The position numbers and the translations under genes are program-made. Shown in pieces: positions 12,804-53,865 of a stretch of 64,000 bases of DNA. The DNA is taken from the IMG/VR virus record IMGVR_UViG_3300049596_000323, positions 1 through 64,000 of that record. One strand, 5' to 3'. The first letter of the stretch is position 1. Every line of letters begins with the position of its first letter. The DNA comes from a virus. Taxonomy: Duplodnaviria; Heunggongvirae; Uroviricota; Caudoviricetes. Below the pieces are notes generated by a model. It ran no database searches and was not told the DNA's origin. It worked only from the letters and a program-made list of their open reading frames with translations.

Positions 12804-14357
12804 TTAGAATTGAGGAATTTCTTCAATCAATACTGTTCTAGATAAATCTTCAATGAATACATCACAACGATCTTTCATCCAGATTTCGTATCCTGGGAAT
12901 TTATTTGCAGAACTCATACCTTGAGACTTAGCAAAGCCTAAGTGGTGACGAGTACCATCAATATAACCCCAAGTCATAGAAGGAGCACCCTTCATACGTA
13001 CTTCACGAATGTTGTTGATCATAGAACCATCAGACATTGGAGATACATCAAACACCATAAATACTGGAGTTGACTTCTTATTCTGACCAAATTCTAAGTT
13101 TGTTTGAGGAAGATCTAATTCTTTCAAGTGGATCAATTCAACACGACCAGTCTCACGTGTAACCATTGCATCAAATGCAAAGTTGTAAGTAATGTGTTGA
13201 CCTTCTCCTTGTAAATATCTGTTACCAGAATCAGCCATGAAAGTTAAACCTGAATTCAATGCATCATTCTTTAAAGCTTGTTGGAACACGTCAAAACCAG
13301 CTTCGTTAGTGTACATTTTAACTCTACGATCCTTAACATCAACACGTCTGTAGAACAAGTCACCAAACACTGAACGAATCAAGTTTGCAGTGAACTCACC
13401 ACGGTTGTATTGTACTAAGTTACCGTTATTACGCATTCTGTGGTAAACACCAGCAGATGTACGCTTTAATTCTTGCTTAGAACCATTAGTCTTCACGGTA
13501 CCAGGCTTAGCCCAGATCATACGCTTAACTTTTAATTCTAACATAGACTTACGCATCCAGAACTCAATAAATGGTTCCCACTTAACATCATTACGAGTTA
13601 AAGGTAATTGGTTACGTCTTTGAGGAGCATATACTAAAATGTCTAAAGCTTTACCAGAAGCATCAACCATCATCTTATCATCAGCCCACTCAGTGATTTT
13701 GTGCTCATAACCATATGCAGAACCTAAAGATTCAAACATTGTGATTTGCTCACCTAAACGAGGAAGACCTAATAAGTCTTGGTCAAATTCACCAATTGCA
13801 GCATCAACTAATTCCAATTCAATACCAACTCTTAAGAAGTTAGGACTAACGAAATCTACAGTTGGATTGTCTGTAACTAAAGTGAAAGTGTATAAGTAAC
13901 CCATGTTCCAGTTTACTGGATCTTTGATTACATAGAAACGAGGACCATACTGACGAGTACCTACAGATACAATTGCATTCTTAGAGAACTCATTAGTATC
14001 AATTACTAATTGGAATTCTTGACCATCAATACCTGGCTTGCTCAGCTCTAAAGTACTTGTTGGAATGTCAATGATTTTAGGGAACTTGTATGGAACTTGT
14101 ACCTGCCACTTCCAAGCATCACTGTTGTTGTCAATATAGTAAGGAGTGCTCTTGTTAATCATGTCCAAGAAGTCATTACTGTAAAGAGAGCTTTGAGTAT
14201 ACAAACTGATAATTTTCTTATCATAATCTGCTGGCTCTGTAGAGTGAAAGCTTTCCAAGTGGTTAGCATCTGTTAATTTACCTACAGCACGCTTGTCCAT
14301 AGAAGCTACTCTTGCGTAAGTAAAACCAGTTAAACCTGGAATTGTTTGAATTGCCAT
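12804..14357 (-). CDS. major capsid protein candidate
   Basis: 517-aa ORF immediately after the scaffold gene, in the terminase-portal-scaffold-capsid order; called by position only. Confidence 0.5.
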   Translation of the reverse strand: MAIQTIPGLTGFTYARVASMDKRAVGKLTDANHLESFHSTEPADYDKKIISLYTQSSLYSNDFLDMINKSTPYYIDNNSDAWKWQVQVPYKFPKIIDIPTSTLELSKPGIDGQEFQLVIDTNEFSKNAIVSVGTRQYGPRFYVIKDPVNWNMGYLYTFTLVTDNPTVDFVSPNFLRVGIELELVDAAIGEFDQDLLGLPRLGEQITMFESLGSAYGYEHKITEWADDKMMVDASGKALDILVYAPQRRNQLPLTRNDVKWEPFIEFWMRKSMLELKVKRMIWAKPGTVKTNGSKQELKRTSAGVYHRMRNNGNLVQYNRGEFTANLIRSVFGDLFYRRVDVKDRRVKMYTNEAGFDVFQQALKNDALNSGLTFMADSGNRYLQGEGQHITYNFAFDAMVTRETGRVELIHLKELDLPQTNLEFGQNKKSTPVFMVFDVSPMSDGSMINNIREVRMKGAPSMTWGYIDGTRHHLGFAKSQGMSSANKFPGYEIWMKDRCDVFIEDLSRTVLIEEIPQF

Positions 14358-16333: not shown

Positions 16334-18916
16334 CTATTTAGTTTTCTTGTTCGCCCTACCTTTAGCATTCTCTTTAGCAATAGCTAAATCATTTGCTTGA
16401 TTCTCTCTAGATACTTTTAACTTTTCTTTTTCTACTTCAAGTTTTTGTAAAGCTAATGTATTTTTAGATTGAATATCGTTCATTTTTAATTGATAATCAT
16501 TAGCAGCTTTTGTTTGTTCACGCATTAATTTATCAACTTCTAAAGCATCAGGAACTCCATTTATGTCTGTATCTGGTAATCCCCCTTTAGATTCAGCAGA
16601 AATAATAGCAATTTCTTTCTTATTAATTCTGTCTAATGCATTTTGATAATCATCATGAGCTATTTTTTCAGCTTGCATTTGTTTAGCACTTTCAATAGCT
16701 GCCATAGATTGCTGTTGCTGTTGCTCAAGTTCTTGTTGCTTTTGTTGCATTTGTTGATCTTGCATTTGATCTTGACGATCTTTAAGTGTCTTAAACACCT
16801 TCTTCATCTGACGTACAGAGTTAGTGCTGTAAAGCTCAATGATATCATGTAATGAACCACCGTTTTGTAAAACAGCTTGAGATAAGCCTCTAATTTCATT
16901 AAACATTTTCTGATCTTCTGGTCTATTAGTTAAATACACTTTAAGATCACGGAACTTAAGATCTGTACCATTCACTTGTACAAATGCAGATTCTCCTTCG
17001 TTAGTAATATATGAAATAGTTGACTCAGGTTTTTTAGCTTCTACATATAGTGATGCATCAATTATAGCTTGATAAAGCTGACCTAATACGTATTCATGTG
17101 CAACAAATATAGGCTCAGTTTGAGAATATGATTGTGTAATAGCAGTGTTAGTACCTGTAGCTGATTCACTAGCTGAAATAGATCCCATACGTTGTCTAGA
17201 CATACCTATCAATTCCCAACACTCATTCTTTAATTGTTGAGCTAGTGTATATCTAGATTGGATCTCTTGCGTACGTGTAAGATCAATATCACGGAACTGG
17301 TTAAATGATGATGGGCTCTTCAAATTTTCTGGAGAGTCATCAATAAACATTACACCACGGTTACGTGCTTCCATTTCCCATACATCAAGAGCATCTTGAG
17401 CATCTCCATCTTTAGGAATAGGAATATGTCTAATAGATGTTAAATACACCTTACCAACTTCTTTTTCTAACAGCTTGTATAATTGATTCATACAAACGTT
17501 ATAAAGAACCTGAAAAGGTTTCATCATATCTACCAAGCTTCTAGCTTCTGTATTCTTAACTTCATGTACTAATCCAATGATAGGACAATAAGGAAGTAAT
17601 TTATATGGTTTAATATGATAGATGTCTGGACCAATCTTAACTCCTTGGTACCATTCATTAATCCATCCCCACTCTAACGATTGTTGTGTAGGAATAGTTC
17701 CAGATTTGTAGTTTTCATCTACTAGTAAAGATTGCTCATTACCTAACTCATCTAAGTAAATTAATTTACCAATCTTCTTTTTAGAAATCCAATATGTACG
17801 TACAACAACATACTTGTAACCAAATGAACTAACATTAGATGTAAGACCTAAGAAGTCTTGTAAGCCATCATTGTTCTCTTTCATTTCAGACTCAATTACC
17901 ATTCTTGTTTGTAACACTAATGGATCATATGTATCATATTGTACTGAATCAATACCTGGAATAGCATTAGGATTACCTAGATTAGATTCACGTACGTTAA
18001 TCAAACCATAGTCTTGTAATGAACTACGTAAGTGATCAATCTCTTCTTTAGTGATATCAGGGAACGTTTCAATAATCTCAGATAGTTCCATCACCATAAC
18101 TGTACCAGCAGCATATGCTCCTTGTGCACGTCCTGAAGGATCTGAAATATATTTTCTATCTGGTGTAGTTAAGAAGAATGTATTCTTAGGGTTAGCCACC
18201 TCAATATTAAATCCAACTTTTGAGTTATCTTCATATACATGATAGAACTCTCTAGAAGAAATTAATAAATCTCTAAACGCATCTTCACTTTTTTCTTTTA
18301 AAATAAACTCAGCTTTCTGAGCTGTTAATACATGATTAGCCCACTTCTCTGCAACAGATGTATAAGAATCAAGTTGATCTTTTACATCCTCCATTGTCAT
18401 TTTTTGCAAGTCTTCGTCAGAGATTTCTTCTCCTTTTAAATCAGCTTGTTCTTGTATTTTAGACTGAGCTTGATTAATTACATAATCTTGTAATATACTT
18501 GTTTTAAATTCAAGCTCTTCAGACTTACTATCATCATCAAATGCCTTCACACGGAAAGCATCTGGACGTTTAGAAATCTCACCTACTAATTCATTAATAG
18601 GTGTTGTCATTATAGAATAATGTTTTACATATGCAGGAAGCTGTAAATCAGCTGTTAGCATATCTGTAAAACTTCTCACCTCAGGTTCTTGGTAAAAATC
18701 CTCATGTCTTAAAATACCCTTAACAAGATCGTAGTTCTTAACAAACGTATCACGGTTCTTTACATACTCAGCGTAAGCTTTGTTTGCAAAGTAGTCCATT
18801 GTATTCTTTATCCAACTCTCATCCATCTTTTCCTTCTCAGTTTTAAACTGATCAGGGAAGATGTTTAAATAGGCATACCTAATTGTTGCGTCTTTTGTAT
18901 ATCTTATAATTGCCAT
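16334..18916 (-). CDS. portal protein candidate
   Basis: 860-aa ORF directly downstream of the large terminase; Q-rich coiled-coil C-terminus (QDQMQDQQMQQKQQELEQQQQQ). Confidence 0.5.
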   Translation of the reverse strand: MAIIRYTKDATIRYAYLNIFPDQFKTEKEKMDESWIKNTMDYFANKAYAEYVKNRDTFVKNYDLVKGILRHEDFYQEPEVRSFTDMLTADLQLPAYVKHYSIMTTPINELVGEISKRPDAFRVKAFDDDSKSEELEFKTSILQDYVINQAQSKIQEQADLKGEEISDEDLQKMTMEDVKDQLDSYTSVAEKWANHVLTAQKAEFILKEKSEDAFRDLLISSREFYHVYEDNSKVGFNIEVANPKNTFFLTTPDRKYISDPSGRAQGAYAAGTVMVMELSEIIETFPDITKEEIDHLRSSLQDYGLINVRESNLGNPNAIPGIDSVQYDTYDPLVLQTRMVIESEMKENNDGLQDFLGLTSNVSSFGYKYVVVRTYWISKKKIGKLIYLDELGNEQSLLVDENYKSGTIPTQQSLEWGWINEWYQGVKIGPDIYHIKPYKLLPYCPIIGLVHEVKNTEARSLVDMMKPFQVLYNVCMNQLYKLLEKEVGKVYLTSIRHIPIPKDGDAQDALDVWEMEARNRGVMFIDDSPENLKSPSSFNQFRDIDLTRTQEIQSRYTLAQQLKNECWELIGMSRQRMGSISASESATGTNTAITQSYSQTEPIFVAHEYVLGQLYQAIIDASLYVEAKKPESTISYITNEGESAFVQVNGTDLKFRDLKVYLTNRPEDQKMFNEIRGLSQAVLQNGGSLHDIIELYSTNSVRQMKKVFKTLKDRQDQMQDQQMQQKQQELEQQQQQSMAAIESAKQMQAEKIAHDDYQNALDRINKKEIAIISAESKGGLPDTDINGVPDALEVDKLMREQTKAANDYQLKMNDIQSKNTLALQKLEVEKEKLKVSRENQANDLAIAKENAKGRANKKTK

Positions 18917-20958
18917 TATGTAAACAATTTATTTCTTTTATATTTATTATGAGAGGTTCCAAACATCCCACCTCTTGATTCTGTAAACAGTACGTTTCCT
19001 TTCTTCTTACTAAACATTGCCTTCACTCTATCATCAGATGTTCCACCAATCTTACCCATAATAGGGTCCATCTTTAATGCTTGTGCAATGGCTAACTCTG
19101 CAGCAATGATTCTATCAAAGTTACCTGAATCATTGTATTGTATAATCTCTTCAAGCAATACAGGATCAAATATCTTACTCACCCCTAGAACTTCTCTTAT
19201 AGTATCACCAGCCTCATTTGTTTCTTTGAATATCACAGACTCCATATACTTCTTTAAGCAGGTGTGAAGATACTCAATTATTTTGTCACTTGAACGATGA
19301 ATTCCATAATCTCTTTTAACTGTTGTGTTTGGAACAATTTCTTTAAGCCATTCAGGTTGTTTCTCTAAATAGTGAGCATCCCCTTTGGCCTTCATATATT
19401 CTATAAATGATATATCATCATTCTCACACAGTGTTCTTGCATTGTAATACTTAATAAGAAGTCTAGCTTGTTCTTCCCAAATCTCTTTCTTATCAGGTCT
19501 TGCACAATACGAAGCTACGAACATATCTTGATACTTCTCACCACTAATTTCATGCATTCTTTTATATATGAATACAGAACCAAGTGAACTTGAATACACA
19601 GACTTACCTTGTCTATAAGGGTCAACTCCTGCTACATACAATCCATAAGGAGGGTTTTCTACAGGGAATTCATATATAACTATAGGAGCATCTTTTGTAT
19701 CACTGTTCTTTAATGGAAAGTTAGATATAGGAAGCTTGTCTGTAAACTCATGCTCAATACCATTTTCTCCAGAGAACAATGTAACAGGAGTTCCTGTTCT
19801 TTCTTGTTGTAACAGTCTGGTTTTCTGTCTCTTAGCTGATTCAATATCAAAGATGTTTGTATCCTCATTCAAGAAGATATCATCCACCTCCATTGGGTAG
19901 TACATCTTCTCCTTCAAATAAGCAATTCTATCTCCAGCCTTTTTAAGTCTTTCTAGGTTCTTCTCTGTAATCTCTTTAGCTCTTTCCTCATCACCCACTA
20001 ACATTTCAACGTTATATAAGTCTGATCCAGTAGGCTCATTTAAGAAAGCTCCTAATGTAGATTTCTCTTTAGCTTCCATTCTATATTTAGCTGGGATGAA
20101 TAAGCCATGTATACGCTTATCATCTTTTGCATTATTATATGTAAGGAAATTAAAGTTGTCTACGTCAAACATCAGGGATTTTGCATCCTGAAATTTCTTC
20201 ATATCACCACCAGTGCCTGTGAGAATTGGAGAACATCCCCAACCATAGGGTGTAGTGAAACCTGGTATAGCCGCCTGTAAACCTCTAAGAAAATTTCCTT
20301 TACCAATCTCATCTATAATTAATTTACGTGGTTTTGTACCTGCAATTGCTTCTTCATTATTACCTTCATCAAGGTTACGTATCAGAATGGAAGAGAATGG
20401 GATACGTTCACCAGATTTGGTTTTAATACCTAATGTGACCTGGTTTTTCCAGTTATCCTCAATTCTCTGCCATCTCCAATACTCAGGGATAAAGTTTAAT
20501 CCTTTATCTATTTTATCCGTAATAAGTTTTATATCTGGTGCATTCAAACCAGCAATAATATTCTGGGAGTTCTCATCAAATGTTGCACCCCATGCAATAT
20601 AGGATGCTTCAAGAACGGATTTAGCAAAACGTCTAATACCTAGAATAACCAAGCCCTTTTTTTCCTGTTGGGCTCTATCAATTTCGTTTGTTACCAGCCA
20701 CTCATTATCTCTTAAAAACGGATTAGCATATTTTTGTGCAATTCTTCCTCTATCATCTATGACATCCACCTCAGTGTGCCATATATTTAGGTGCCAATAT
20801 AAAAAGGGGTTGATATACACACCCCCCATCATAGCACCATTTAAACATAATTCTCTATGGAAATCAAAGAACGGTTTACATTCAGCAGATTCCTTATCAG
20901 GAATACGTTTCTGATTTATGAACCAATCTTTGTAATCTATGTTTTGTAGTTCAATCAT
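18916..20958 (-). CDS. terL: terminase large subunit
   Basis: ATPase-like LVILGIRRFAKS and KLIIDEIG, then a nuclease-type LYVAGVDPYRQG; 680 aa, upstream of the portal. Confidence 0.7.
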   Translation of the reverse strand: MIELQNIDYKDWFINQKRIPDKESAECKPFFDFHRELCLNGAMMGGVYINPFLYWHLNIWHTEVDVIDDRGRIAQKYANPFLRDNEWLVTNEIDRAQQEKKGLVILGIRRFAKSVLEASYIAWGATFDENSQNIIAGLNAPDIKLITDKIDKGLNFIPEYWRWQRIEDNWKNQVTLGIKTKSGERIPFSSILIRNLDEGNNEEAIAGTKPRKLIIDEIGKGNFLRGLQAAIPGFTTPYGWGCSPILTGTGGDMKKFQDAKSLMFDVDNFNFLTYNNAKDDKRIHGLFIPAKYRMEAKEKSTLGAFLNEPTGSDLYNVEMLVGDEERAKEITEKNLERLKKAGDRIAYLKEKMYYPMEVDDIFLNEDTNIFDIESAKRQKTRLLQQERTGTPVTLFSGENGIEHEFTDKLPISNFPLKNSDTKDAPIVIYEFPVENPPYGLYVAGVDPYRQGKSVYSSSLGSVFIYKRMHEISGEKYQDMFVASYCARPDKKEIWEEQARLLIKYYNARTLCENDDISFIEYMKAKGDAHYLEKQPEWLKEIVPNTTVKRDYGIHRSSDKIIEYLHTCLKKYMESVIFKETNEAGDTIREVLGVSKIFDPVLLEEIIQYNDSGNFDRIIAAELAIAQALKMDPIMGKIGGTSDDRVKAMFSKKKGNVLFTESRGGMFGTSHNKYKRNKLFT

Positions 20959-28859: not shown

Positions 28860-29273
28860 GGGGGTGTACTGGCTTTGACAGACATGAGGCTGGTAGTATC
28901 ACATGCAAGCCTTGGAACAGGTAAACAAGTTCTAAACAATAACCGTAAAGAGTCAATCTGAGCGTGTTGAAGAAGGTGCTAGCATTATTGCTATGGCTTT
29001 CGCTTCTGAGTTAGCATTAGCTGCTTAGTCAACTGGGTGGTAACAACCTGGAAACAGAAAGTTACAAGCGTTTTCTCTATTATGTCAAAATAGAGTGGTG
29101 GTAGATAGCAAACCCTGCGATCCCAACTACTGATTAGAAGTGCTTAGGACTATGTAGTAATACATTGTAATTGCTCTAAGTAAATGTACATGAACAGCTT
29201 CAGATCTAAGCATGTAAGAATGGTATTATTATCACTTGTCTGGACAGGGGTTCAACTCCCCTCACCTCCACAA
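28860..29273 (+). ncRNA. ssrA: tmRNA (transfer-messenger RNA), phage-encoded
   Basis: The 5' GGGGGUG pairs with the 3' CACCUCC through a G3-U wobble, as in E. coli tmRNA. The 5' region carries ACUGGCUUUGAC (like GAUUCGAC). The T-arm is GGACAGGGGUUCAACUCCCCU. An internal tag ORF ends ...AFASELALAA with TAG at 29026-29028. Confidence 0.8.
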
Positions 29274-30338: not shown

Positions 30339-32291
30339 ATGAACGTACTCATCTATGATATAGAAACCATGCAGGAGCTGTTTCTAGTTTGTATATATAA
30401 TCCTGAAACACAGCAATGGCATGAATTCCAGGTGAGTAAAAATACAAACCAAATTGATGCCTTTGTTAGAATGACAGAAGACTACAAAGACTTCTATTGG
30501 GTAGGTTATAACAATCTACGCTTTGACAGTCAAGTGGTTGAGTGGATCATACGCAATCATCAGAACTGGCATGAAATAGGTGCACTAGATGTATGTGCAT
30601 TGATAGCTCAGAAGGCTGCAGATATAATACATGATGCAAACTATGATGTATTCCCAGAATATAGGGAAGAATGGCTAGCTAATAAGCAAATTGATTTGTT
30701 TAGGGTGAATCATTATGATAATAAGAACAGACGTGTATCATTGAAAAGATTAGAGTTTGAGATGGATCTAGAGAACATTGAAGAGATGCCCATTCATCAT
30801 ACAAAGACTAACATGACAGATGATGAAATAGAACTAACTATTGATTACTGTCGTAATGATATATATGCCACTTATGAATTCTATTTGGTAACAACAGGTG
30901 TCACTGAACATCCATTATATAAGGATAACAATCAGATAGAGCTCAGACAAGATATTGAAGAAGAGTTTAACATACCATGTCTTAACTATTCAGATAGTAA
31001 GATAGGTGATGAAATGATTAAGAAATATTATTGTCAAGAGAAAGGTATACAATATAGTGAACTACCAAAGAAAGGATACTTTCGTAAAGAAGTTAAAGCT
31101 AGAAACTGTATAGCTGATTATGTAACATTCCAGACACCAGAACTACAAGGATTCTTAAAGCATATAAAGAAACAAATCTTTACGCTCACTGATGATTTTA
31201 AAGAGTCATTAGTATTCTATGATAATACATATACGTTTGCTAAGGGTGGTTTACATACAGAGAACAAGCCCAAGATATTTGAAGCTGATGAAGATGTAGA
31301 AATTATTGATTGGGATGTTAGTTCATACTATCCAGCTATTATCATTAACAATGGTCGCTATCCACAGCATTTAGGTAAAGAGTTTCTTAGAGGATACAAA
31401 CAGATGTTTGAGAAGAGACTAGAACTCAAGCCATTAGCTAAGAAAGATAAGAAGATAGCAGGTATTGTTGGAGCGTTGAAGTTAGCAGTTAACTCTGTGT
31501 ATGGTAAAAGCTCTGACATGCAAAACTGGATCTATGATAGACAACTAACCATGTTCACCACTATTACAGGTGAGCTTAGTTTACTTATGCTAATTGAAGC
31601 CTATGAATTAAATGGTATACATGTTATATCAGCTAATACAGATGGTGTTACAGTTCAGATAAAGAAGGAACTATTGCAAAAAATGCATGAGTTAAACAAA
31701 TGGTGGATGGAACTAACTACATATGAACTAGAGCGTACAGATTATGCTAAGATTATATTCTCAACAGTAAATGACTATTTAGCAATTAAAACAAATGGAG
31801 AAATTAAAAAGAAAGGCGATTTCCTCACAGATTTTGAGCTTCATAAAAATAAGTCTGGTCGTGTTATTCCTTTGGCTCTTGAACAGTATTTTGTTCACAA
31901 TATACCTATTGCTGACACTATCACCAATCATAATAATATATATGATTTTGCGTTAAGGCAAAAGGCTAGCAAAGACTTTCATTATGAAGGTGTAGCTGGT
32001 GCTAAAAGAACAGTGTACAATAAGTTGATTCGTTATTATGTATCTAATACAGGAGAAAAGCTCTTAAAGATAAAGAATCCTGATTGTACAACTAATGCTG
32101 CAGATGTGTCACAAGTGGAAGCAGGTGAATGGCTAATGACAGTTTGTAATAAACTAAGCAAAGACCATTCTCTAGATAACATTAACCACGCATATTATAT
32201 AGAGCGTGCTGAGCGTATTGTATATAAGATACAGCTTGAAGGTAAGAAAAGAAAAATTATTGTTAATCCAAATCAATTAAATTTATTCTAA
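30339..32291 (+). CDS. family B DNA polymerase with 3'-5' exonuclease
   Basis: Exo I YDIET, Exo II YNNLRFD, Exo III YCRNDIYATYE; pol motif B KLAVNSVYGK (Kx3NSxYG); motif C SANTDGV. Confidence 0.75.
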   Translation: MNVLIYDIETMQELFLVCIYNPETQQWHEFQVSKNTNQIDAFVRMTEDYKDFYWVGYNNLRFDSQVVEWIIRNHQNWHEIGALDVCALIAQKAADIIHDANYDVFPEYREEWLANKQIDLFRVNHYDNKNRRVSLKRLEFEMDLENIEEMPIHHTKTNMTDDEIELTIDYCRNDIYATYEFYLVTTGVTEHPLYKDNNQIELRQDIEEEFNIPCLNYSDSKIGDEMIKKYYCQEKGIQYSELPKKGYFRKEVKARNCIADYVTFQTPELQGFLKHIKKQIFTLTDDFKESLVFYDNTYTFAKGGLHTENKPKIFEADEDVEIIDWDVSSYYPAIIINNGRYPQHLGKEFLRGYKQMFEKRLELKPLAKKDKKIAGIVGALKLAVNSVYGKSSDMQNWIYDRQLTMFTTITGELSLLMLIEAYELNGIHVISANTDGVTVQIKKELLQKMHELNKWWMELTTYELERTDYAKIIFSTVNDYLAIKTNGEIKKKGDFLTDFELHKNKSGRVIPLALEQYFVHNIPIADTITNHNNIYDFALRQKASKDFHYEGVAGAKRTVYNKLIRYYVSNTGEKLLKIKNPDCTTNAADVSQVEAGEWLMTVCNKLSKDHSLDNINHAYYIERAERIVYKIQLEGKKRKIIVNPNQLNLF

Positions 32292-39447: not shown

Positions 39448-40452
39448 ATGATTAAAGGAGTGAAGAAGACAAAATTGTCTATAGAAGCGGTGCTCAGCAA
39501 GATATCTGAATATGATATATTTAGATTCTATATGCCAGATCATGATTGGAAACTTAATAGGGTTACATATTCTCCATTTAGGAAAGAGAATAATCCATCA
39601 TTTGTTATTGGTAACAAACTTGGTTATATATCATTTATAGACTTTGCTGATACAAGTTTGAGAGGTGACTGTTTTAACTTTGTACAAAAGCTGTTCATGC
39701 TACCAAATATGATAGACACACTAAAGCTTATAGATAAAGACTTTGGGTTAGGTATCAGTAATGGTAAATCAACAGAAGAGTATAAAAAGATAGTCTCTGA
39801 ATACAAACAGCCTCAGATTGAGAAGAGATACTCTATCATCCAGGTGAGTACCAGAAAGTTCACTAGTAGAGAACTTAAGTATTGGAATCAATATCACATA
39901 GATCTTCAAGACCTTAGAGATAATAATGTATATGCTATAAAGAATGTATTTCTTAATAAGAGCAAGTTTGCACTTAAAGATGAAGAAATGACATTTGGTT
40001 ATCTATATGAAGGACAATATTGGAAGATATATAGGCCATTTGAAGACAAGAAACACAAATGGATTCCTAATAATGTTCCAATCACCGTAATGGACGGTAA
40101 AGAAGATATAGTTAACTGCAGCGTAGCATTTATCAATAAGAGTAAGAAAGACTATATGGTGATGAAGAAGATATTCCCATGTAGCTGTGCTGTACAGAAT
40201 GAGGGCATAGGTTGTTTCTCAGAAGACAATGTAGAATACCTAAAAGCCAATTCTGATAGCCAGATATTAAGTTTTGACAGTGATGTCACAGGTGTAACTA
40301 ACTCACAACAAATTACTAAATTGTTTGATTTTGGTTATGCTAACGTCCCACGTAAGTATTTAGCTGAAGGGATTAAAGATTGGGCAGATCTTGCAAAAGT
40401 CCACGGATTAGAAACAATAGAAAAGTATTTAATTAACAAAAACATTTTATGA
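39448..40452 (+). CDS. DnaG-like primase (TOPRIM) with degenerate zinc-binding motif
   Basis: YSPFRKENNPSFVI resembles DnaG CPFHDEKTPSFSV but the Cys/His ligands are replaced; TOPRIM-like ILSFDSDVTG near the C-terminus. Confidence 0.45.
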   Translation: MIKGVKKTKLSIEAVLSKISEYDIFRFYMPDHDWKLNRVTYSPFRKENNPSFVIGNKLGYISFIDFADTSLRGDCFNFVQKLFMLPNMIDTLKLIDKDFGLGISNGKSTEEYKKIVSEYKQPQIEKRYSIIQVSTRKFTSRELKYWNQYHIDLQDLRDNNVYAIKNVFLNKSKFALKDEEMTFGYLYEGQYWKIYRPFEDKKHKWIPNNVPITVMDGKEDIVNCSVAFINKSKKDYMVMKKIFPCSCAVQNEGIGCFSEDNVEYLKANSDSQILSFDSDVTGVTNSQQITKLFDFGYANVPRKYLAEGIKDWADLAKVHGLETIEKYLINKNIL

Positions 40453-40596: not shown

Positions 40597-41361
40597 ATGG
40601 AAATTTATAACACAACAAAAGAGTTAATTCTCAACACACCAGTTCCTGCACAGACAAGAACATATAAGCCTGTTTCACATGGTCAATTAATAGACCTTAC
40701 ATTAGATGGTATTAGCAAAGCTGGTTTCATTTTAGACAAGCAAACATACTCAGCAGCTGCTAATGGTCAGATTGCTAATGGTAGATTCTCTATCAGTAAT
40801 GTTGCAGATAGTGAGATGCAATTACAAGTTGGTTGGCAGAATAGCTACAACAAGCAACTTACATTAAAGTTTGCTATTGGTACACGTATATTAATTTGTT
40901 CTAATGGTTGTGTGTCTGGTGACTACGGTGCATTCAAGAAGAAGCATGTTGGTGAGATTCAATCTTTCACACCACAGGCTATTGGAGATTATATCAAGAC
41001 AGCTGCAGACTCATTCAAGTTGATGCAAACTCAAAGAGAGAATATGAAGCAGATTGAAATCACTAGACGTATAAAAGCTGAGTTGATTGGTAGAATGATG
41101 ATTGAAGAACAGTTCATCCAGTCTACACAGATGAACATTATTAGCAGAGAGATGACGAATCCTACACATGATTATGGTGCACCTGATAGCTTATGGGAGT
41201 TGTATAACTATACCACCTTTGCTATGAAAGAAGTACATCCTAGTCTTTGGATGGAGAATCATATCCAAGCACATAAGTTCTTTAATGATTATGCATATGA
41301 TGCTACACCAATGGATTATGAGCAAGGAGAAATAATGCTTAATCAATTATCAATATTTTAA
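40597..41361 (+). CDS. hypothetical protein
   Basis: 254-aa ORF. Confidence 0.4.
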   Translation: MEIYNTTKELILNTPVPAQTRTYKPVSHGQLIDLTLDGISKAGFILDKQTYSAAANGQIANGRFSISNVADSEMQLQVGWQNSYNKQLTLKFAIGTRILICSNGCVSGDYGAFKKKHVGEIQSFTPQAIGDYIKTAADSFKLMQTQRENMKQIEITRRIKAELIGRMMIEEQFIQSTQMNIISREMTNPTHDYGAPDSLWELYNYTTFAMKEVHPSLWMENHIQAHKFFNDYAYDATPMDYEQGEIMLNQLSIF

Positions 41362-41362
41362 T

Positions 41363-42082
41363 ATGAATTGGGAAAAATTTAAAGATCAGTTTCATGAGAG
41401 TTGGCACTTAAAGATGAGACCATTTATTGAGAGCGAAGCTTGTGATGAAATCTATAAATTTCTTAAGTCAGAGAGTCAGAGGGGCAAGAAGATTGCTCCT
41501 CTGTCTTCTAATGTCTATAGATGTTTTATGGAGACCCCACTAGATGAGCTTAAGATTGTAATGATGGGTATGGCTCCATATCACACACTTAAACAAGGAA
41601 GTCCTGTAGCAGATGGTTTATTGATGGGCTGTTCCACCACTGGTGTATTACAGCCTTCATTAGAACAGTTCTATGGAGCAATTGAAAGAGAAGTGTATAA
41701 TGGACTATGTGCTTATTGTGACAAGACTAATCCAGATGTAAGCTATCTAGCTCATCAGGGTGTATTAATGTTTAATGCATCTCTCACCACTGAGATTAAC
41801 AAAGCAGGTAGTCATATCAAACTGTGGGAACCGTTCACAAAGTATGTCATAGAGGAGATTTTAAATCCTCAACAAGTTCCTTATATATTCTTAGGCAAAG
41901 ATGCTGCACAGTATGCTAGGTATGCAAATCCATTTGTATGGAGTTTCACAACTACACATCCTGCATCAGCTAGCTATAGGAATACAGAATGGGAATCTGG
42001 AGATGTATTCAGAATGGTTAACAAGGTGATAAAAGACAATAATAATTTTCAAATTGAATGGTTAGACGGTACACCATTTTAA
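41363..42082 (+). CDS. family-1 uracil-DNA glycosylase homologue with substituted catalytic Asp
   Basis: Collinear with E. coli Ung: LKIVMMGMAPYH (GQDPYH), GVLMFNASLTT (LLLNTVLTV), HIKLWEPFTKYVIEEI (HASLGWETFTDKVI), HPASASYR (HPSPLSAHR). Confidence 0.75.
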   Translation: MNWEKFKDQFHESWHLKMRPFIESEACDEIYKFLKSESQRGKKIAPLSSNVYRCFMETPLDELKIVMMGMAPYHTLKQGSPVADGLLMGCSTTGVLQPSLEQFYGAIEREVYNGLCAYCDKTNPDVSYLAHQGVLMFNASLTTEINKAGSHIKLWEPFTKYVIEEILNPQQVPYIFLGKDAAQYARYANPFVWSFTTTHPASASYRNTEWESGDVFRMVNKVIKDNNNFQIEWLDGTPF

Positions 42083-42094
42083 ACAAAAACAATT

Positions 42095-42457
42095 ATGTAT
42101 AAAGTAAAAGTTGGTGGAGATATCCACAAAGGTGATTTAGTTGCCATATCTAATGGTAATGATTTTAGTCTTGGTATTTATTATGGTCAAGGTAGAGGTG
42201 GTACATTTCAGTATTTTACACCATCAGGAGTTGTAAGCTCTAAAATTTGGTGGGAAAAAGCAAACAAAGACTCAGCATATGCTGATCATAATAAACCTTG
42301 GAAACTTACCAGAATCTGGAAGAGTTATGTAAATACACCAAGAGACACAAGAATTCTCAAATTAAATAGAGATAATATTACAGAACAACAAGACATAGAA
42401 AACATTATTGAAGCAAAAGAAATCCTTAAAGAATTTAACATAGAAGTAAACTTTTAA
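42095..42457 (+). CDS. hypothetical protein
   Basis: 120-aa ORF. Confidence 0.4.
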   Translation: MYKVKVGGDIHKGDLVAISNGNDFSLGIYYGQGRGGTFQYFTPSGVVSSKIWWEKANKDSAYADHNKPWKLTRIWKSYVNTPRDTRILKLNRDNITEQQDIENIIEAKEILKEFNIEVNF

Positions 42458-42459
42458 TT

Positions 42460-44820
42460 ATGATCTTAGAAAAACAAACAGAAGCACACATCCTCCAAGA
42501 AGGAGAATCACAGGAAACTGTGAAAATGTCATTAGACTTAGATTCTGCACAAGTATTGATGCAGATGTTAAGTAAGAATCTATATTCAGATTCAATAGGC
42601 TCTACTATCAGAGAATGTGCATCCAATGCACTAGATAGTCACAGAAGAGCTGGGAGTGACAGACCTATTATTGTCTCATTTAAGAGAAACAATCAGGCAG
42701 ATACATATGAATTTGCTGTTGAAGATTTTGGTATTGGTTTAGATGCAGATGATGTAGTTAACATTATCAGCAAATATGGTAAATCAACCAAGCGTAACAG
42801 CAATACAGAGTTAGGTATGATGGGCTTAGGTTTCAAAGCCCCACTAGCTTACAGTTCTAGCTTCTATTTTGTAGCTAGAAAAGATGGTATGGAACGCAAG
42901 TACATGATGTACGAAGGAGAAGAAACAAATAGTATTGATCTTCTGTATGAAAAAGCTACAGAAGAACCAAATGGTGTAAAGGTGATTGTACCTGTGAACT
43001 ATTATGATAGACACAGTTTCACTAGTAAGATTAGAGAGCAATTAGCTTATTTTGAGAATGTGTATTTTGATGTAGATAATAGTATTAGTTATGCTGTTAC
43101 TAATGATTTTACAATTCACAGAGCTGAACATTTCCAATTCTCTAGTATAGCTACTAACAATTACATGCATTTATGTTTGGACAATGTTAGTTATCCAATT
43201 GACTGGGAGAAGCTTGGTATTGAAAGGATTAATATCAAGATAGCTTTACGTTTTAGTCTTAGTGATGGATTGTTCCCTACACCAAATAGAGAAGCTATCA
43301 GATATACACAGGAAGCTAAGCAAGTTATTCTTAATAAGCTAGCTCAGGTGGCAGATGTATTCATGGAGAAGTTCAATGAATCAATTTCTGATAAAGCTAA
43401 TATTGATTCTATCATGAGCTTTTATGGAGAAAGACGTAAATACTTACCAAGCTTTTATAGAAAAGAAGAAGATAGAATTGAGATTGATGAACTTCTTAAG
43501 TATGCAACTATTCCTTTGAAACAACCTAAACTTGAAGGTGTAGATTTGTTAGATCTTAAGAGAATGGCTGAGCAGAACAAGGAGTATATGTTAGCTGAGT
43601 ATCAAATAAAGTTTAGATACCAAGGAAACAGATTCAATAATGCAAAGAATTATTGGGGTGGTAACCTAAGAATTCAAGACATTAGTTCTTACAATGCTGG
43701 TAACATTTATCTATTCTCTGACAGACTTGCTAAGAATAAGCAAGATTACATGAGAAGCTTACTTGGTGATAGCAGCAAATGTCACTTGTTTGTAAAGAAA
43801 GAAAAGCCTTTTCAATTAATGAAGGGTGAATCTATTGATTACAATAAGTATTATCATTCTATTTTAGGTCTTAAGAACTATCCAAAGAGTCAATGGAGAC
43901 AACTCATCACAGAATTCCAGTATGTAATTAGTTTATATTCTAAAGATTTCATTGATGTAGATGCTATTGATATTCCACAAACATGGATAGATACTCAGAA
44001 AGCTAAGAGAATGAAGGTGTTATCTAATCCTGTAACAGTGAATGGTGTTAAGAAGGTTAGAATGAAAGGTGAATTCTCTGGTAAGGTTGCTACCAAAACA
44101 GAGATTACATATTCTGATAGACATTCTAAGTTTGTTCCTACAACATTTAAGTTAGAAGATGTTCATAAAGTTAATAAACTGCATGTGTATGCTAAAGAAG
44201 AGCAAAGAGAGAAGTTAGATAAGCTCTGGTCTTTATTTAACGATCATGCAAACTTTGTTATTGTTGCTCAAGCTACAATAGATAATTTACAGAAAGCAGA
44301 TTTACATAACTGGATAACATTAGAAAAATTTATGGAAGGAAAAAACAGACCATTTAGAACAATGGCTACACAGTTTCTTGTTGAGAGAATGACAAACAAG
44401 TATACTAACACTTTTAAAAGAACTGAGGTTGTTAAGCAAATCTCTACAGATCTTTATGATAAGTTAGAAGTGATAAGACAGTACGATAACAAGTATTCTA
44501 AAAACTATTGTGACAATAAGACTAAAGATATAGTGTTAGAGCTAGCTTTAGAACAAAACTTATTTGACCAGGAAATACTAGTTGTGTACAAGCAGGTAGA
44601 AGAAGTATTTAACAAACTTACATTCTTAAATCCACTAATGGGACAAATTAATTCTTATTATGGTGGAGTTGATAAAGATTTATTAAAAGCTTATGTTGAT
44701 CTATTTAAATATAATAAACACAAGGTGAACCTTGAGCACTACACTATAAAGCTCAATGAAGATGCATCCTTGGAAGAAGTATTAACAGAAGACACAATTG
44801 AAGAATTACAAACAATTTAA
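42460..44820 (+). CDS. Hsp90/HtpG-like GHKL ATPase chaperone
   Basis: N-domain parallels HtpG: NLYSDSIGSTIRECASNALDS (LYSNKEIFLRELISNASDA), VEDFGIGLD (ISDNGVGMT), ISKYGKSTKR (IAKSGTKSF), LGMMGLGFKA (IGQFGVGFYS). The middle domain carries LFPTPNREAIRY, like Hsp90 LPLNISREMLQQ. Confidence 0.75.
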   Translation: MILEKQTEAHILQEGESQETVKMSLDLDSAQVLMQMLSKNLYSDSIGSTIRECASNALDSHRRAGSDRPIIVSFKRNNQADTYEFAVEDFGIGLDADDVVNIISKYGKSTKRNSNTELGMMGLGFKAPLAYSSSFYFVARKDGMERKYMMYEGEETNSIDLLYEKATEEPNGVKVIVPVNYYDRHSFTSKIREQLAYFENVYFDVDNSISYAVTNDFTIHRAEHFQFSSIATNNYMHLCLDNVSYPIDWEKLGIERINIKIALRFSLSDGLFPTPNREAIRYTQEAKQVILNKLAQVADVFMEKFNESISDKANIDSIMSFYGERRKYLPSFYRKEEDRIEIDELLKYATIPLKQPKLEGVDLLDLKRMAEQNKEYMLAEYQIKFRYQGNRFNNAKNYWGGNLRIQDISSYNAGNIYLFSDRLAKNKQDYMRSLLGDSSKCHLFVKKEKPFQLMKGESIDYNKYYHSILGLKNYPKSQWRQLITEFQYVISLYSKDFIDVDAIDIPQTWIDTQKAKRMKVLSNPVTVNGVKKVRMKGEFSGKVATKTEITYSDRHSKFVPTTFKLEDVHKVNKLHVYAKEEQREKLDKLWSLFNDHANFVIVAQATIDNLQKADLHNWITLEKFMEGKNRPFRTMATQFLVERMTNKYTNTFKRTEVVKQISTDLYDKLEVIRQYDNKYSKNYCDNKTKDIVLELALEQNLFDQEILVVYKQVEEVFNKLTFLNPLMGQINSYYGGVDKDLLKAYVDLFKYNKHKVNLEHYTIKLNEDASLEEVLTEDTIEELQTI

Positions 44821-44831
44821 AAAACAAAAAC

Positions 44832-46397
44832 ATGCTAAGTTTAAAATGGTTTAAAAGTGCTATTGAACGCACAATTGAAAAAGTAGTAGAAAACAAAATT
44901 GAACAAGCGTTCAATGAATTGGATAAAGAAGAAGGGGCTCAGGCTCCTTCTTTTAATTCTGCTTTCAATCCCAATGCTAATTGGAATTCAAGCAGTACAT
45001 GGACAGGGCCAACTAGTTACACAAAGCCCTATATAAACATCAAAATGGTTAATGATACATTGACTATTGTATTGAATGATGGCAATATCATTACCAAAAC
45101 TCCAGCTACAGCAGATGATTTTACTGCAGCTAAGCTATGTAAATCAGAAGCATGTTTACTAGATCTTGTTAGTACACAAGAGGTTAAAGACCAAAGAAGA
45201 CAAGCTGAAGCTGAGTATGAGAAAGCTAAAGCTGTTCAGAAAGGTGCTGAGTTCCTAGCTAAGTTTGATGATTTTGAGATGAAACACGGTAGTTTATATC
45301 TTAAGGGTATCAACAGAAGTATCCCACCTTTGATGGTGGAAGAGTTCTTAGAAATCATTGGTAGTTATTCTTATAATGGAATGGCTGATATAGATGAAAT
45401 GAATGCTCTTGTAATAGAAGATGAAGAGTATCAAGCACTTAAGCGTTTCTTCATGTGGTGTTGCTTGAATCCAAGAGCTGAAGTGGCAGATAAGTTATAT
45501 GGCTTCTTGAAGAAGAATAGCTTCAGCATCACTAAACAAGGATTCTTTGTAGCATTACGTAATGTTGTTACACTTCATGGTTCTACTGAGCTTGTGCACT
45601 TTGTAAGTAATGCTTATAATAAGGTGAAAGCTGTATGGAAGAAGAAACCAGATGATTATACTATCTTCTTAAAAGATGGTGAATATAAAATGGTTCATGA
45701 AGATGCTATGTATAAAAAAGAAACATGTACATGTTCTTATTGTGATGGTACAGGAACTATTCCTGAGTGTGATGAATGGGAAGATAGTGAAGAGTGTCCA
45801 GAGTGTAATGGTACAGGCGAATATGAAGATCTTGTTCTTGCAATTGAAGGTGAAAACCTTGGTAACTTAACTGAGCTATATCTTGATTTGCCTAATAGAG
45901 CAGAGAATAGATTCACAGATGCTCATACAAGAACATTTGACATCAGAATTGGTAGACCAGTAAGTATGCCTATGGAAAAGTGCAGATGGAATACTGATGA
46001 CTGTGGTGCTGAAGGTTTACACTTTACATCTGATGAGATTCATTATGTAGGTTGTGGTGACACATCTGTACTTGTACTTATCAATCCAATGAAGGTTGTA
46101 GGTATTGGTGAGAGTAAGGGTAGATGCTATGAGTATTTACCAATTATGACTGTGCCACGTGAAGAAGCAACAGAAATCTTACATGATTTAGATTTTGATA
46201 CATTACAGTTAGATGAGTCTTATGCGATTCGCGAATTGCAAAACTTGGCTGAGAAAGCTAAAGAAGGATTCACTGCAGAAGCTAAGAAGTATGATTTCAA
46301 CTTACCTGCTCTATCTGCTGTAGAAGTGTATACAATTGTTAGGAGTCTTGATGAAATTAAAGAAGAAATTTCAGGAAGAATCGTTACAATTGATTAA
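44832..46397 (+). CDS. protein with DnaJ-type CxxCxGxG zinc-finger pair
   Basis: CSYCDGTG and CPECNGTG repeats within CTCSYCDGTGTIPECDEWEDSEECPECNGTGEY; directly downstream of the Hsp90-like gene. Confidence 0.45.
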   Translation: MLSLKWFKSAIERTIEKVVENKIEQAFNELDKEEGAQAPSFNSAFNPNANWNSSSTWTGPTSYTKPYINIKMVNDTLTIVLNDGNIITKTPATADDFTAAKLCKSEACLLDLVSTQEVKDQRRQAEAEYEKAKAVQKGAEFLAKFDDFEMKHGSLYLKGINRSIPPLMVEEFLEIIGSYSYNGMADIDEMNALVIEDEEYQALKRFFMWCCLNPRAEVADKLYGFLKKNSFSITKQGFFVALRNVVTLHGSTELVHFVSNAYNKVKAVWKKKPDDYTIFLKDGEYKMVHEDAMYKKETCTCSYCDGTGTIPECDEWEDSEECPECNGTGEYEDLVLAIEGENLGNLTELYLDLPNRAENRFTDAHTRTFDIRIGRPVSMPMEKCRWNTDDCGAEGLHFTSDEIHYVGCGDTSVLVLINPMKVVGIGESKGRCYEYLPIMTVPREEATEILHDLDFDTLQLDESYAIRELQNLAEKAKEGFTAEAKKYDFNLPALSAVEVYTIVRSLDEIKEEISGRIVTID

Positions 46398-46442: not shown

Positions 46443-46859
46443 ATGATAAAGAAAAAAGCAAACAAAAGAAAGCCTGCTGCTCCTAGAAAACCAAGAGTTC
46501 CTAAAACTAGGAATGCTGGTACTATGACAGAGTCAGGGTTCTGGAGTTTCATTAGAAGTGGATTGAGACAGAAATCTAGATGGTGGAAACCTATTAGTGA
46601 ATGTAAATTAAAAGCTCGTAGAGCTTACAAAGGTCCTAGTAAAAGACAAAAGTTTGAATACAAATGTGCTTGTTGTGGAGATTGGTTCCCAGAGAAACTG
46701 GTAAATGTAGATCATATCACCCCTGCAGGTTCATTAAACTGTGCTCAAGACTTACCAGGATTTGTAGAAAGATTGTTCTGTGAACAAGAAAACTTACAAG
46801 TGCTATGTGAAGCATGCCATAACATTAAAACAAAAAAAGATAAAGATGAAAGAGATTAA
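46443..46859 (+). CDS. HNH endonuclease
   Basis: CACCGDWF...VDHITPAG...CEACHNIKT: Cys pairs plus the HNH His/Asn pattern; very basic N-terminus. Confidence 0.65.
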   Translation: MIKKKANKRKPAAPRKPRVPKTRNAGTMTESGFWSFIRSGLRQKSRWWKPISECKLKARRAYKGPSKRQKFEYKCACCGDWFPEKLVNVDHITPAGSLNCAQDLPGFVERLFCEQENLQVLCEACHNIKTKKDKDERD

Positions 46860-52014: not shown

Positions 52015-53052
52015 ATGGCTAAAGCAGCAAAAACAGTAGACAGCGGTGTCTCTAAATTCCAAGAAGCTCTTGATAAATTAAACAAGACTTATGGTGTAGG
52101 TACAGTACTTACACTTGATTCAAAAGACAGTGGTGACTATGATGTCATCTCAACAGGTTCTATTGGATTTGATTACATTACATTAGGTGTTGGTGGATTT
52201 GTTAAAGGTAAAATGTATGAACTAATGGGCTGGGAAGGTACAGGTAAGTCTACTATTTGTGGACACGTTGTAGCTGAAGCTCAGAAGAAAGGTAACAAGG
52301 TGGTTTATATTGATGGCGAACATGCTGTTGATAAGAATTACTTTGAAGCTATTGGTGTTAACACTAGTGAGTTATTGATTGCTCAACCATCATGTGGTGA
52401 GGAAGGTTTTAACATTGCTATGGAAATGATTAACACTGGTGAGGTAGGTCTCATCATTATTGACTCAGATTCATCATTGATTCCTAAGAAACAATTAGAT
52501 GGTGAGGTGGGTGATAGTACTATTGGTTATAAATCTAGACTAAATAGTAATGCCTATCCAAAACTTAAATCTGCTCTATCAGAACATAATGTATGTCTCA
52601 TTGTCATCTCTCAATATAGAGAGAAGATTGGTGTGATGTTTGGTAATCCAACAACTACACAAGGTGGACATGCTCTTAAGTTTTACACAGATTGTAGAAT
52701 TGAGGTGAGCAAAAGCTTAGCCAAAGATGGTGATGTAAACTATGGTAATATTACCAAGGTGAAAGCTATTAAGAATAAGATGTGTCCTCCATATAAACTA
52801 GCTCAATTTGAGATTGTATATGGTTTAGGTATTGATAAGCTTGATGAAATCATGACTCTTATCAATGATTTTGGTATTGGTAGAAAGTATGGTAAAACAA
52901 TGACTATTGGTGAACATAAGTATGATCTTGAACAATTTAAGAGTATGCTTACTGATAATCAAGAATTCTATGATGAAATCAAAAAAGAAATTATAACTAA
53001 AATTAATCAAACAGAAACTAAAACAGAAGAAGATGATACAAGTGAAATTTAA
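52015..53052 (+). CDS. RecA/UvsX-like recombinase
   Basis: Walker A GWEGTGKST, Walker B LIIIDSDSS; 345 aa; a TAAATTTG box lies about 30 nt upstream. Confidence 0.6.
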   Translation: MAKAAKTVDSGVSKFQEALDKLNKTYGVGTVLTLDSKDSGDYDVISTGSIGFDYITLGVGGFVKGKMYELMGWEGTGKSTICGHVVAEAQKKGNKVVYIDGEHAVDKNYFEAIGVNTSELLIAQPSCGEEGFNIAMEMINTGEVGLIIIDSDSSLIPKKQLDGEVGDSTIGYKSRLNSNAYPKLKSALSEHNVCLIVISQYREKIGVMFGNPTTTQGGHALKFYTDCRIEVSKSLAKDGDVNYGNITKVKAIKNKMCPPYKLAQFEIVYGLGIDKLDEIMTLINDFGIGRKYGKTMTIGEHKYDLEQFKSMLTDNQEFYDEIKKEIITKINQTETKTEEDDTSEI

Positions 53053-53473
53053 GAAAGTCAGCGATGACGTAAAAATGCCTGTAAAAGGCTCTAAGTATGC
53101 AGCATGTTTTGATGTATATGCACATGATATTACATCTAATGCTACTAACAAGATTATAGTGGGTTTAGGTTTTAAAACAGAAATTCCTGTAGGATATAAA
53201 GGAATTATTGTACCTAGAAGTAATCTAACTAAATATGATTGGGTTTTAAACAATTCTTTTGGTATAATTGATGCAGACTACCGTGGTGAATGGAAAGCTG
53301 TATTTACATCATTAAAAGGAACTATAACAGAAAATCAGTTTCCTTATGGTGTAGGTGAAAGAGTTGCTCAGATCTATTTTGAACCAGTTATGATTGCAGA
53401 CCTTACCCAAGTACCTGAACTTGAAGAGTCTGAAAGAGGAGAAGGTGGATTTGGTTCAACTGGTGTGCAATAA
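53033..53473 (+). CDS. dut: dUTP diphosphatase (trimeric dUTPase)
   Basis: AACFDVYA, IVPRSNL, GIIDADYRGE, RVAQIYF, GEGGFGSTG. Confidence 0.8.
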   Translation: MIQVKFKKVSDDVKMPVKGSKYAACFDVYAHDITSNATNKIIVGLGFKTEIPVGYKGIIVPRSNLTKYDWVLNNSFGIIDADYRGEWKAVFTSLKGTITENQFPYGVGERVAQIYFEPVMIADLTQVPELEESERGEGGFGSTGVQ

Positions 53474-53865
53474 TGCCTACCTGTAAAACCTGTGGTAAGA
53501 GATGTGATGGAGAATATTGCTTTCAACATAAACCTAGAAAACGAATTGCTGCACAAAATTTGACAAAAAGTGTCAAAAAAAATGAAGTAATACGGAAGAT
53601 TGACGTAATGAGAGAGTTCTTCTTACAAATCTGGAAGAAAAGACAACATTTATCTGAGATTAGTGGGCTTCCCTTGGTTGGGGAGCCTCTCTCAGTATAT
53701 TTTCACCACATACTACCAAAAGAAAAATATCCTGATGCTTCTTTGGATGAAGAAAATATCATACTTTTGACATTAGATGAACACTCTAATGTTGAGAATG
53801 ATATGTATAAGTATGAAGAAGTTAATATTAAACGTGAACAATTAAAAAATAAATATGAAATCTAA
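53473..53865 (+). CDS. zinc-ribbon protein
   Basis: CKTCGKRCDGEYCFQH at the N-terminus; HNH-like nuclease possible but not shown. Confidence 0.35.
   Translation: MPTCKTCGKRCDGEYCFQHKPRKRIAAQNLTKSVKKNEVIRKIDVMREFFLQIWKKRQHLSEISGLPLVGEPLSVYFHHILPKEKYPDASLDEENIILLTLDEHSNVENDMYKYEEVNIKREQLKNKYEI

Follow-up and report, generated by a model that had tools for sequence, protein, structure and literature searches.

In UNG, the family-1 uracil-DNA glycosylase (UDG), mutation of the catalytic Asp to Asn lowers kcat by three to four orders of magnitude. In the native enzyme, the aspartate of motif 1 activates a water molecule and the histidine of motif 2 stabilises the uracilate, while the Gln-Asp doublet of the family co-evolves and is needed for efficiency (PMC5387724). 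The gene considered here encodes a protein with the family-1 UNG fold that lacks this doublet. It is located at positions 41363 to 42082 of a 64-kb stretch of DNA, referred to below as the window (positions 1 to 64,000 of IMG/VR record IMGVR_UViG_3300049596_000323), which is part of a ~113 kb genome of a Caudoviricetes phage.

Members of other UDG families differ from UNG in the same motifs. Family 4 UDG carries an Fe-S cluster, and UdgX is defined by a KRRIH-type loop that carries a cross-linking histidine. Families 4 and 5 retain the motif-2 histidine and harbor a motif 1 of the GE[A/G][V/P]G type (PMC5387724). Within family 1, the D145N/H268N form of human UNG, employed as a uracil sensor, binds uracil-containing DNA (U-DNA) specifically without excising the base (PMC4756853).

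Two groups of eukaryotic viruses use UNG-fold proteins at the replication fork. Poxvirus D4 (E4 in mpox) is a subunit of the polymerase processivity factor, and its role in replication is independent of glycosylase catalysis (PMC1936997). The UNGs of gammaherpesviruses, namely ORF46 of murine gammaherpesvirus 68 (MHV68) and those of Epstein-Barr virus (EBV) and Kaposi's sarcoma-associated herpesvirus (KSHV), bind the polymerase and the processivity factor independently of their catalytic residues. A null mutant is defective while a catalytic mutant is not, and the UNG acts within the complex of viral polymerase and processivity factor (vPOL/vPPF). In bacteriophages, the crAss-phage literature lists "UDG" with the nucleotide-metabolism genes and does not comment on the active site (PMC7886860), and a recent preprint on phage polymerase-UDG fusions takes UDGs supplied "in trans" to be active. 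The full-text literature searched, the coverage of which was incomplete, contained no account of phage family-1 UNGs that naturally lack the aspartate.

A family-1 UNG without its catalytic doublet

The gene and the parts of its active site are as follows.

41363..42082, + strand: UDG-like open reading frame (ORF) of 239 aa, from the ATG at 41363 to a stop that ends at 42082; family-1 UNG fold without the Gln-Asp doublet
41567..41584, + strand: motif 1, G69-M-A-P-Y-H74, equivalent of GQDPYH; the codon of A71 is GCT (41573-41575), and relatives have Cys (TGT/TGC) or Ala
41624..41626, + strand: Met88, where UNG has the uracil-stacking Phe158; Met in 116 of 118 close relatives
41774..41776, + strand: Asn138, equivalent of the uracil-specificity residue Asn204; invariant in the clade
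41957..41977, + strand: motif 2, H199-P-A-S-A-S-Y205, equivalent of HPSPLSV; catalytic His retained, Leu272 wedge replaced by Ala203

A preliminary description of this DNA had recognized a family-1 UDG homologue here, and phmmer against the PDB, NCBIfam and Foldseek agree on this assignment. The phmmer matches comprise ~55 different UNGs of family 1, headed by that of Leishmania (3cxm, E=4.8e-17), with poxvirus D4/E4 as weaker matches (E ~1e-4), and the UNG equivalog models of NCBIfam match at E=6e-34. An AlphaFold2 model computed from a 36-sequence alignment has a predicted local distance difference test (pLDDT) score of 95.8 and a predicted template modelling (pTM) score of 0.92. When this predicted model is compared with the PDB by Foldseek, all top 50 matches are family-1 UNGs with TM-scores of 0.78-0.88; DNA-bound human UNG gives the highest value (0.88), and KSHV UNG is among the best. 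By descent and fold, the protein is unambiguously a family-1 UNG.

The protein passes the Pfam UDG model (PF03167) with 24.5 bits against a cut-off of 24.3, and for none of the UNG equivalog models of NCBIfam does it reach the cut-off (NF003592, 117.8 vs 162 bits; TIGR00628, 94 vs 185.75 bits); the GQDPYP protein of phage Fpv3 clears the NCBIfam UNG cut-off with 178.4 bits. Its best PHROG, phrog_12143, is of "unknown function". Judged by its catalytic motif, stacking position and equivalog scores, the protein would not be an isofunctional member of the UNGs. A near-identity DNA search of the 38-46 kb region against GenBank phages returned no match, so that an annotated close relative is absent from that collection.

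The active site was mapped by means of three independent phmmer alignments and a MAFFT alignment that included Ung of E. coli, human UNG and D4 of vaccinia virus, all three of which were verified as full-length PDB matches. In every one of these alignments, G69-M70-A71-P72-Y73-H74 is aligned to G-Q-D-P-Y-H such that Met70 stands for Gln144 (human UNG numbering) and Ala71 for Asp145. The replacement of the catalytic aspartate by alanine (GMAPYH), already proposed in the preliminary description, is thus the same throughout, and the change had been understated: the glutamine, the stacking phenylalanine and the leucine wedge are gone as well. The same description had reported an HPSPLS-type histidine motif. 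His199 is indeed kept, but the Leu272 wedge is Ala203 and the loop reads HPASASY; an HPA-type motif 2 is common to this protein and D4. Retained equivalents are Tyr73 (Tyr147), Ser99 (Ser169, in the Pro-rich loop), Asn138 (Asn204) and His199 (His268). The Gly-Ser loop of UNG corresponds to Gly178-Lys179, and a four-residue insertion follows PYH.

No acidic residue that could take the place of the missing carboxylate emerges. Neither the phmmer nor the MAFFT alignments place an Asp or Glu within KIVMMGMAPYHTLKQGS, and the comparison with Ung and vaccinia D4 that had been suggested as a check puts no other acid at the catalytic position. A column-by-column comparison of Asp-keeping with Asp-less representatives reveals no gained carboxylate; the only columns that differ beside the motif are Q->L/M, P->H and x->T. 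Asp84 (in ADGL) was considered as a compensating acid and rejected, being conserved in Asp-keeping and Asp-less groups alike. The KRRIH-type loop of UdgX is absent from the 239-aa protein, all matches of which are to family 1 and not to a family-4-like scaffold. Likewise, neither form of the family 4/5 motif 1 (GE[A/G][V/P]G or GLAPG) is present, and all significant sequence and fold matches are family-1 UNGs.

Compared with E. coli Ung and human UNG, the phage protein has the full-length fold, sequence homology and the equivalents of Tyr147, Ser169, Asn204 and His268. However, Gln144, Asp145, Phe158 and Leu272 are Met, Ala/Cys, Met and Ala, and the phage gene, unlike that of a cellular UNG, belongs to a replication module, next to a primase. 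Its placement among viral replication genes is common to the phage protein and the D4/herpesvirus UNG type. D4 keeps its aspartate (GIDPYP), is active and works through A20, whereas the phage protein is without the aspartate and, by sequence, stands closer to the UNGs of cells than to D4. All herpesvirus UNGs are competent for catalysis; in the phage protein the loss of catalytic residues is natural and fixed. The D145N/H268N sensor, like the phage protein, is without the water-activating carboxylate; it is a laboratory double mutant that also lacks the histidine, in contrast to the phage protein, which keeps it and additionally lacks the Gln, Phe and Leu. UDG families 4, 5 and 6 (UDGa, UDGb and HDG) resemble the protein in having a small or apolar side chain where motif 1 would carry the "Asp"; with families 4 and 5, the likeness in motif 1 goes no further.

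Loss of the aspartate across relatives

A search of 5.8 billion proteins yielded 1244 matches, of which the best 120 (67-92% identity) were examined. Motif 1 reads GMCPYH in 96 of these, GMAPYH in 18 and GFCPYH in six, and none of the 120 has the aspartate. In an alignment of 118 full-length close relatives, residue 71 is Cys in 101 and Ala in 17. Conservation within the protein is highest in the blocks that resemble the active site. Among the invariant positions are G69, P72, Y73, H74, D84-G-L86, Q97-P-S-L100 and Q132-G133, and further N138, A139, L141, T142, N146-KAGS-H151, G178, H199-P-A201, A203 and Y205. Both residues responsible for uracil specificity and thymine exclusion, Asn138 and Tyr73, are therefore among them.

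In IMG/VR, at least 579 stretches among the first 600 pattern-matching ones encode a relative of the UDG-like protein. Eighty related loci (60-99% identity; several on contigs of ~101-117 kb) were compared and, together with the window, provided 81 coding sequences for codon and selection analysis. Codon 71 is TGT or TGC in 71 of these sequences and GCT, GCC or GCA in the other 10. Each exchange between Cys and Ala takes two nucleotide changes, and a rough neighbour-joining (NJ) tree with Fitch parsimony places ~5 independent switches among the 81 sequences. Ala71 is not a sequencing error because a contig 99% identical to the window and nine other relatives also carry Ala codons.

The gene is under constraint throughout the clade. 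The pairwise ratio of nonsynonymous to synonymous substitution (dN/dS; NG86, 595 pairs with dS of 0.05-1.5) has a median of 0.21 and a range of 0.03-0.35, and the ORF is full-length and intact in 81/81 coding sequences. Between the window and the Ala-bearing loci L005-L007 the ratio is 0.05-0.15, and it is 0.05 against the closest relative. Two-nucleotide switches between Cys and Ala, together with constraint in the Ala lineages, indicate that position 71 needs no base or nucleophile and that the gene is not decaying; the position would require a small apolar side chain only. A Cys nucleophile was rejected for the window protein, which has Ala at a position where Cys and Ala have switched ~5 times under continued constraint. 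Since the Asp-less state is fixed in the clade under purifying selection, the function of the protein needs no carboxylate there.

A wider view was obtained from a library of representatives at 50% identity, in which 6053 proteins match at E<=1e-3. The nearest 138 full-length representatives were tabulated, a sample that is skewed to relatives of an Asp-less query and in which counts are phylogenetically non-independent. The Asp position is occupied by D in 64, C in 19, S in 19, E in 14, A in six, N in four, G in four, K in three, T in two, P in two and V in one. Accordingly, the aspartate is kept in 46%, while the equivalents of Asn204, Tyr147 and His268 are kept in 131 (95%), 134 (97%) and 119 (86%), respectively; the Phe158 equivalent is F in 76, M in 31 and L in 27. 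Fitch parsimony on an NJ tree places Asp at the root and counts ~17 changes from Asp to non-Asp or back. The Asn and/or the His are also lost in 16/59 representatives without Asp or Glu vs 1/64 Asp-keepers (Fisher p=2.9e-5), and the Asp-less representatives with such additional losses are still 218-270 aa long. These sequences suggest that the catalytic apparatus was eroded repeatedly and progressively, and that the protein was kept all the same.

Three representatives carry the UDG-like domain at the C-terminus of a longer protein: P0138 (159-384 of 385; motif 1 GLSPYH), P0141 (284-524 of 524; GMCPYH) and P0250 (78-295 of 295; SLDPYP). Their N-terminal fusion partners could hint at an interaction partner. 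Searches for related loci seeded with the Ser-type P0126 and the Glu-type P0133 returned one and zero loci, respectively.

Genomic context and positional orthology

The UDG-like gene is part of a tightly packed replication module, with the following neighbours.

30339..32291, + strand: DNA polymerase (phrog_1252, E=2e-140), same replication module
39448..40452, + strand: DNA primase (phrog_12622), upstream of the UDG-like gene and on the same strand in 80/80 loci
40597..41361, + strand: DUF932 protein (Pfam 27.5 bits); its stop lies 1 nt before the UDG-like ATG; optional, 67/80 loci
42095..42457, + strand: orf120, 120 aa, between the UDG-like and rIIA-like genes; optional, 36/80 loci
53033..53473, + strand: dUTPase (phrog_135, E=1.6e-44; TIGR00576, 101.8 bits)

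The module begins with the polymerase, a DnaB-like helicase, an SNF2 helicase, a Sak4-like ATPase, a 291-aa protein and the primase. From the primase on, the order is orf53, DUF932, UDG-like, orf120, an rIIA-like GHKL ATPase and rIIB-like, followed by an HNH endonuclease, a PD-(D/E)XK-type exonuclease, RNR, a RecA/UvsX-like recombinase and the dUTPase. Across the 80 related loci, the synteny is primase-(orf53)-(DUF932)-UDG-like-(orf120)-rIIA-like-rIIB-like, in which orf53 is an optional insert (46/80 loci). No PHROG, Pfam or PDB match was obtained for orf120.

The rIIA-like protein (786 aa, GHKL/HATPase_c N-terminus, phrog_612 E=1e-58) and the rIIB-like protein (521 aa) are encoded at 42460-46397 (+), directly downstream of the UDG-like gene. 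They keep this synteny in 73/80 and 64/80 loci, respectively, and both are also found near canonical UDGs in other phage clades. The polymerase has no Pfam match and no PDB sequence match; relatives at ~31% identity in Sashavirus, Proteus and Flavobacterium phages are labelled PolB, Pol II or "exonuclease related to PolB". A dUTPase keeps uracil out of phage DNA. The presence of one in the same genome, which the preliminary description had pointed out, is borne out by the match to phrog_135. Its NCBIfam scores lie just below the cut-offs (101.8 vs 102.55 bits for TIGR00576 and 92.1 vs 103 bits for NF001862).

The terminase puts the phage in a crAss-related environmental lineage. By this marker, the nearest isolates are Leptolyngbya phage Lbo-JY46 (40%), Cellulophaga phages phi17:2 and phi4:1 (33%), Crassvirales (27-30%) and the Fpv phages. 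Canonical UDGs occupy the same module slot in other phage clades. The proteins of crAss001 (Gp74, 28% identity to the window protein), cr111_1 and Fpv3 (gp56, 30%) fall within 28-30% identity and keep GQDPYP and the stacking Phe; in Cellulophaga phi14:2, motif 1 of the UDG is GKEPY. Fpv3 shares the primase-UDG arrangement and the Sak4-like neighbour: its UDG overlaps the primase stop and comes after the Sak4-like gene, as in the window. In a scan seeded with a GQDPYH representative, further phage clades have a canonical UDG directly downstream of a window-type primase (loci L090, L142, L146 and L148 and, more loosely, L119), and in many others, genes of the rIIA/rIIB-like, exonuclease, Sak4 or DnaB kind are encountered within 6 kb. 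The occurrence of canonical UDGs in the same slot indicates that the Asp-less gene descends from a canonical UDG there.

Functional interpretation

It is proposed, at a probability of roughly one half, that the protein is a non-hydrolytic or very slow DNA- or uracil-binding accessory of the phage replisome, by analogy with the poxvirus and herpesvirus proteins. Its ancestor would be a canonical phage UDG whose gene already followed the primase in the replication module. The clade has small or apolar residues in place of the Gln-Asp doublet (Met-Ala/Cys), of the stacking Phe (Met) and of the Leu wedge (Ala); fold, phosphate-contacting loops and the residues that read the base (Asn, Tyr and His) have remained invariant. 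Efficient hydrolytic excision of uracil would have been lost, and the protein would have been retained as a DNA-binding, possibly uracil-binding, subunit that may associate physically with the primase or the polymerase. With the Gln, Asp, Phe and Leu all gone, efficient hydrolysis is unlikely, and the invariant Asn, Tyr and His appear to fit continued binding of the base or of DNA. The fixed slot downstream of the primase points to a role like that of D4 or herpesvirus UNG and, combined with selection on the fold and pocket, makes the replisome-accessory model the best supported. The preliminary description had reasoned from the near-inactivity of Asp mutants. Binding of U-DNA without excision by the D145N/H268N enzyme is in line with this (PMC4756853), but the activity of families 4-6 without the aspartate is not, and inactivity of the phage protein is presumptive. 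The decoy and sensor roles that it had also put forward found no specific support.

Several points weigh against the accessory model. The pocket residues Asn138, Tyr73, His74 and His199 are invariant, which a purely structural role would not require, and a pocket that still works would explain this invariance just as well. A bridging protein of the A20 type was not recognised. Moreover, synteny with the primase is a matter of co-expression, not contact, and the counts from the 138 representatives carry the bias given above.

A second explanation, possible and distinctly less probable than the accessory model, is that the protein remains a working glycosylase for uracil or deaminated bases that does without the aspartate, acting slowly at the fork in the manner of MUG/TDG. 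His199 would stabilise the uracilate, and water would be placed by another residue, for example the invariant Asn146-Lys147. There is precedent in UDG families 4, 5 and 6, which are active without the motif-1 Asp (Gly or Ala in family 4) and use the motif-2 His and the motif-3 Asn (PMC5387724). His199, Asn138, Tyr73 and Ser99 are all retained in the window protein, the NKAGSH block is invariant, and no part of the protein is more conserved than its pocket residues, as a working pocket would have it; the dUTPase shows that the phage invests in uracil avoidance. Asn146-Lys147 lies 8-9 residues after Asn138, the offset at which the water-positioning Asn89 follows Asn80 in Thermus UDGa (family 4), yet the equivalence suggested for Asn146 and Asn89 is one of spacing in the sequence only. 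In family 1, however, the doublet is the part that co-evolves and is needed for efficiency (PMC5387724), and here the Gln, Asp, stacking Phe and Leu wedge were all lost together. The family as a whole accepts C, A, S, G, T, K, P and V at position 71, and Asp-less lineages lose the His or Asn significantly more often, as expected after a real loss of catalysis. Considerably more doubtful is a re-targeted hydrophobic pocket (Met70, Ala/Cys71, Leu87 and Met88), with which the protein would act as a glycosylase or reader for another or a modified base, for instance in self/non-self discrimination of DNA or in counter-defence. Four pocket-lining residues did change jointly and then became invariant in the clade. 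Enzymes of the UDG superfamily have been re-targeted to other bases repeatedly (PMC10776899, PMC9796141), and glycosylases acting on modified phage DNA are mentioned in the literature. Nevertheless, the residues that specify uracil, Asn138 (N3/O4) and Tyr73 (which excludes 5-substituents), are unchanged, and the water activator is still absent. No DNA-modification genes were found among the ~50 ORFs scanned in the window, which covers 64 kb of the ~113 kb genome, so a phage with modified DNA is not supported. The least probable explanation by far is a decaying relic or an artefact of annotation or sequencing. It would account for the lost catalytic residues and for a Pfam score barely over the threshold, and it was rejected on the basis of the median dN/dS of 0.21, the 81/81 intact ORFs, the many invariant blocks, the pLDDT of 95.8 and the presence of Ala in 10 independent contigs.

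A more specific and rather speculative proposal, set well behind the accessory model, is that the protein acts at the fork as a "reader" that recognises uracil without cutting and is anchored to primase or polymerase. Such a reader may flip and hold uracils in the template or shield them from host Ung, and abasic sites and breaks in single-stranded replication intermediates may thereby be prevented. Phages PBS2 and phi29 block Ung by means of the inhibitors Ugi and p56; by analogy, shielding may reach the same end. The UDG family in this slot may be primarily a replisome subunit with facultative catalysis, and, if true, the D4 arrangement of poxviruses would have its first counterpart in bacteriophages. 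Separately, in Cys/Ser relatives (G[LM][CS]PYH), covalent capture of the oxocarbenium ion, in analogy to UdgX, could be brought about jointly by the thiol or hydroxyl and the co-varying His74.

Other features of the window

A full-length tmRNA gene is located at 28860-29273 (+) in an ORF-poor gap upstream of the polymerase. It scores 88 bits with Rfam RF00023 (gathering score 47, E=2.7e-34, model positions 1-374 of 374), and ARAGORN gives the tag peptide VKSQSERVEEGASIIAMAFASELALAA, which ends in ALAA followed by the stop. The phage-borne tmRNA in this lineage may merit a study of its own. Two HNH endonuclease genes are found at 46443-46859 and 53473-53865 (+), the second of which abuts the dUTPase; they may be homing elements. 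The structural genes include those of the portal (16334-18916), the large terminase (18916-20958) and the major head protein (12804-14357). The structural module also encodes a 620-aa tail fibre protein with collagen-like repeats at 5757-7619 (-), which matches multiple tail-fibre PHROGs.

Significance

In the databases (JGI names and GenBank annotations), these genes are labelled simply "uracil-DNA glycosylase". The label is probably functionally wrong for this clade, which affects the annotation of hundreds of phage genomes, and Asp-less proteins make up a sizeable share of the wider phage UDG family in the nearest-relative sample. Uracil-DNA sensors could be built on such natural scaffolds, which also allow one to ask how far the motif-2 histidine alone can sustain catalysis in a family-1 fold. 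Repeated natural loss of the aspartate under selection in a replication module amounts to an evolutionary experiment. It lends support to the idea that viral UNGs perform an essential non-enzymatic task in the replisome, which has so far been shown only for poxviruses and herpesviruses and would hereby be extended to bacteriophages.

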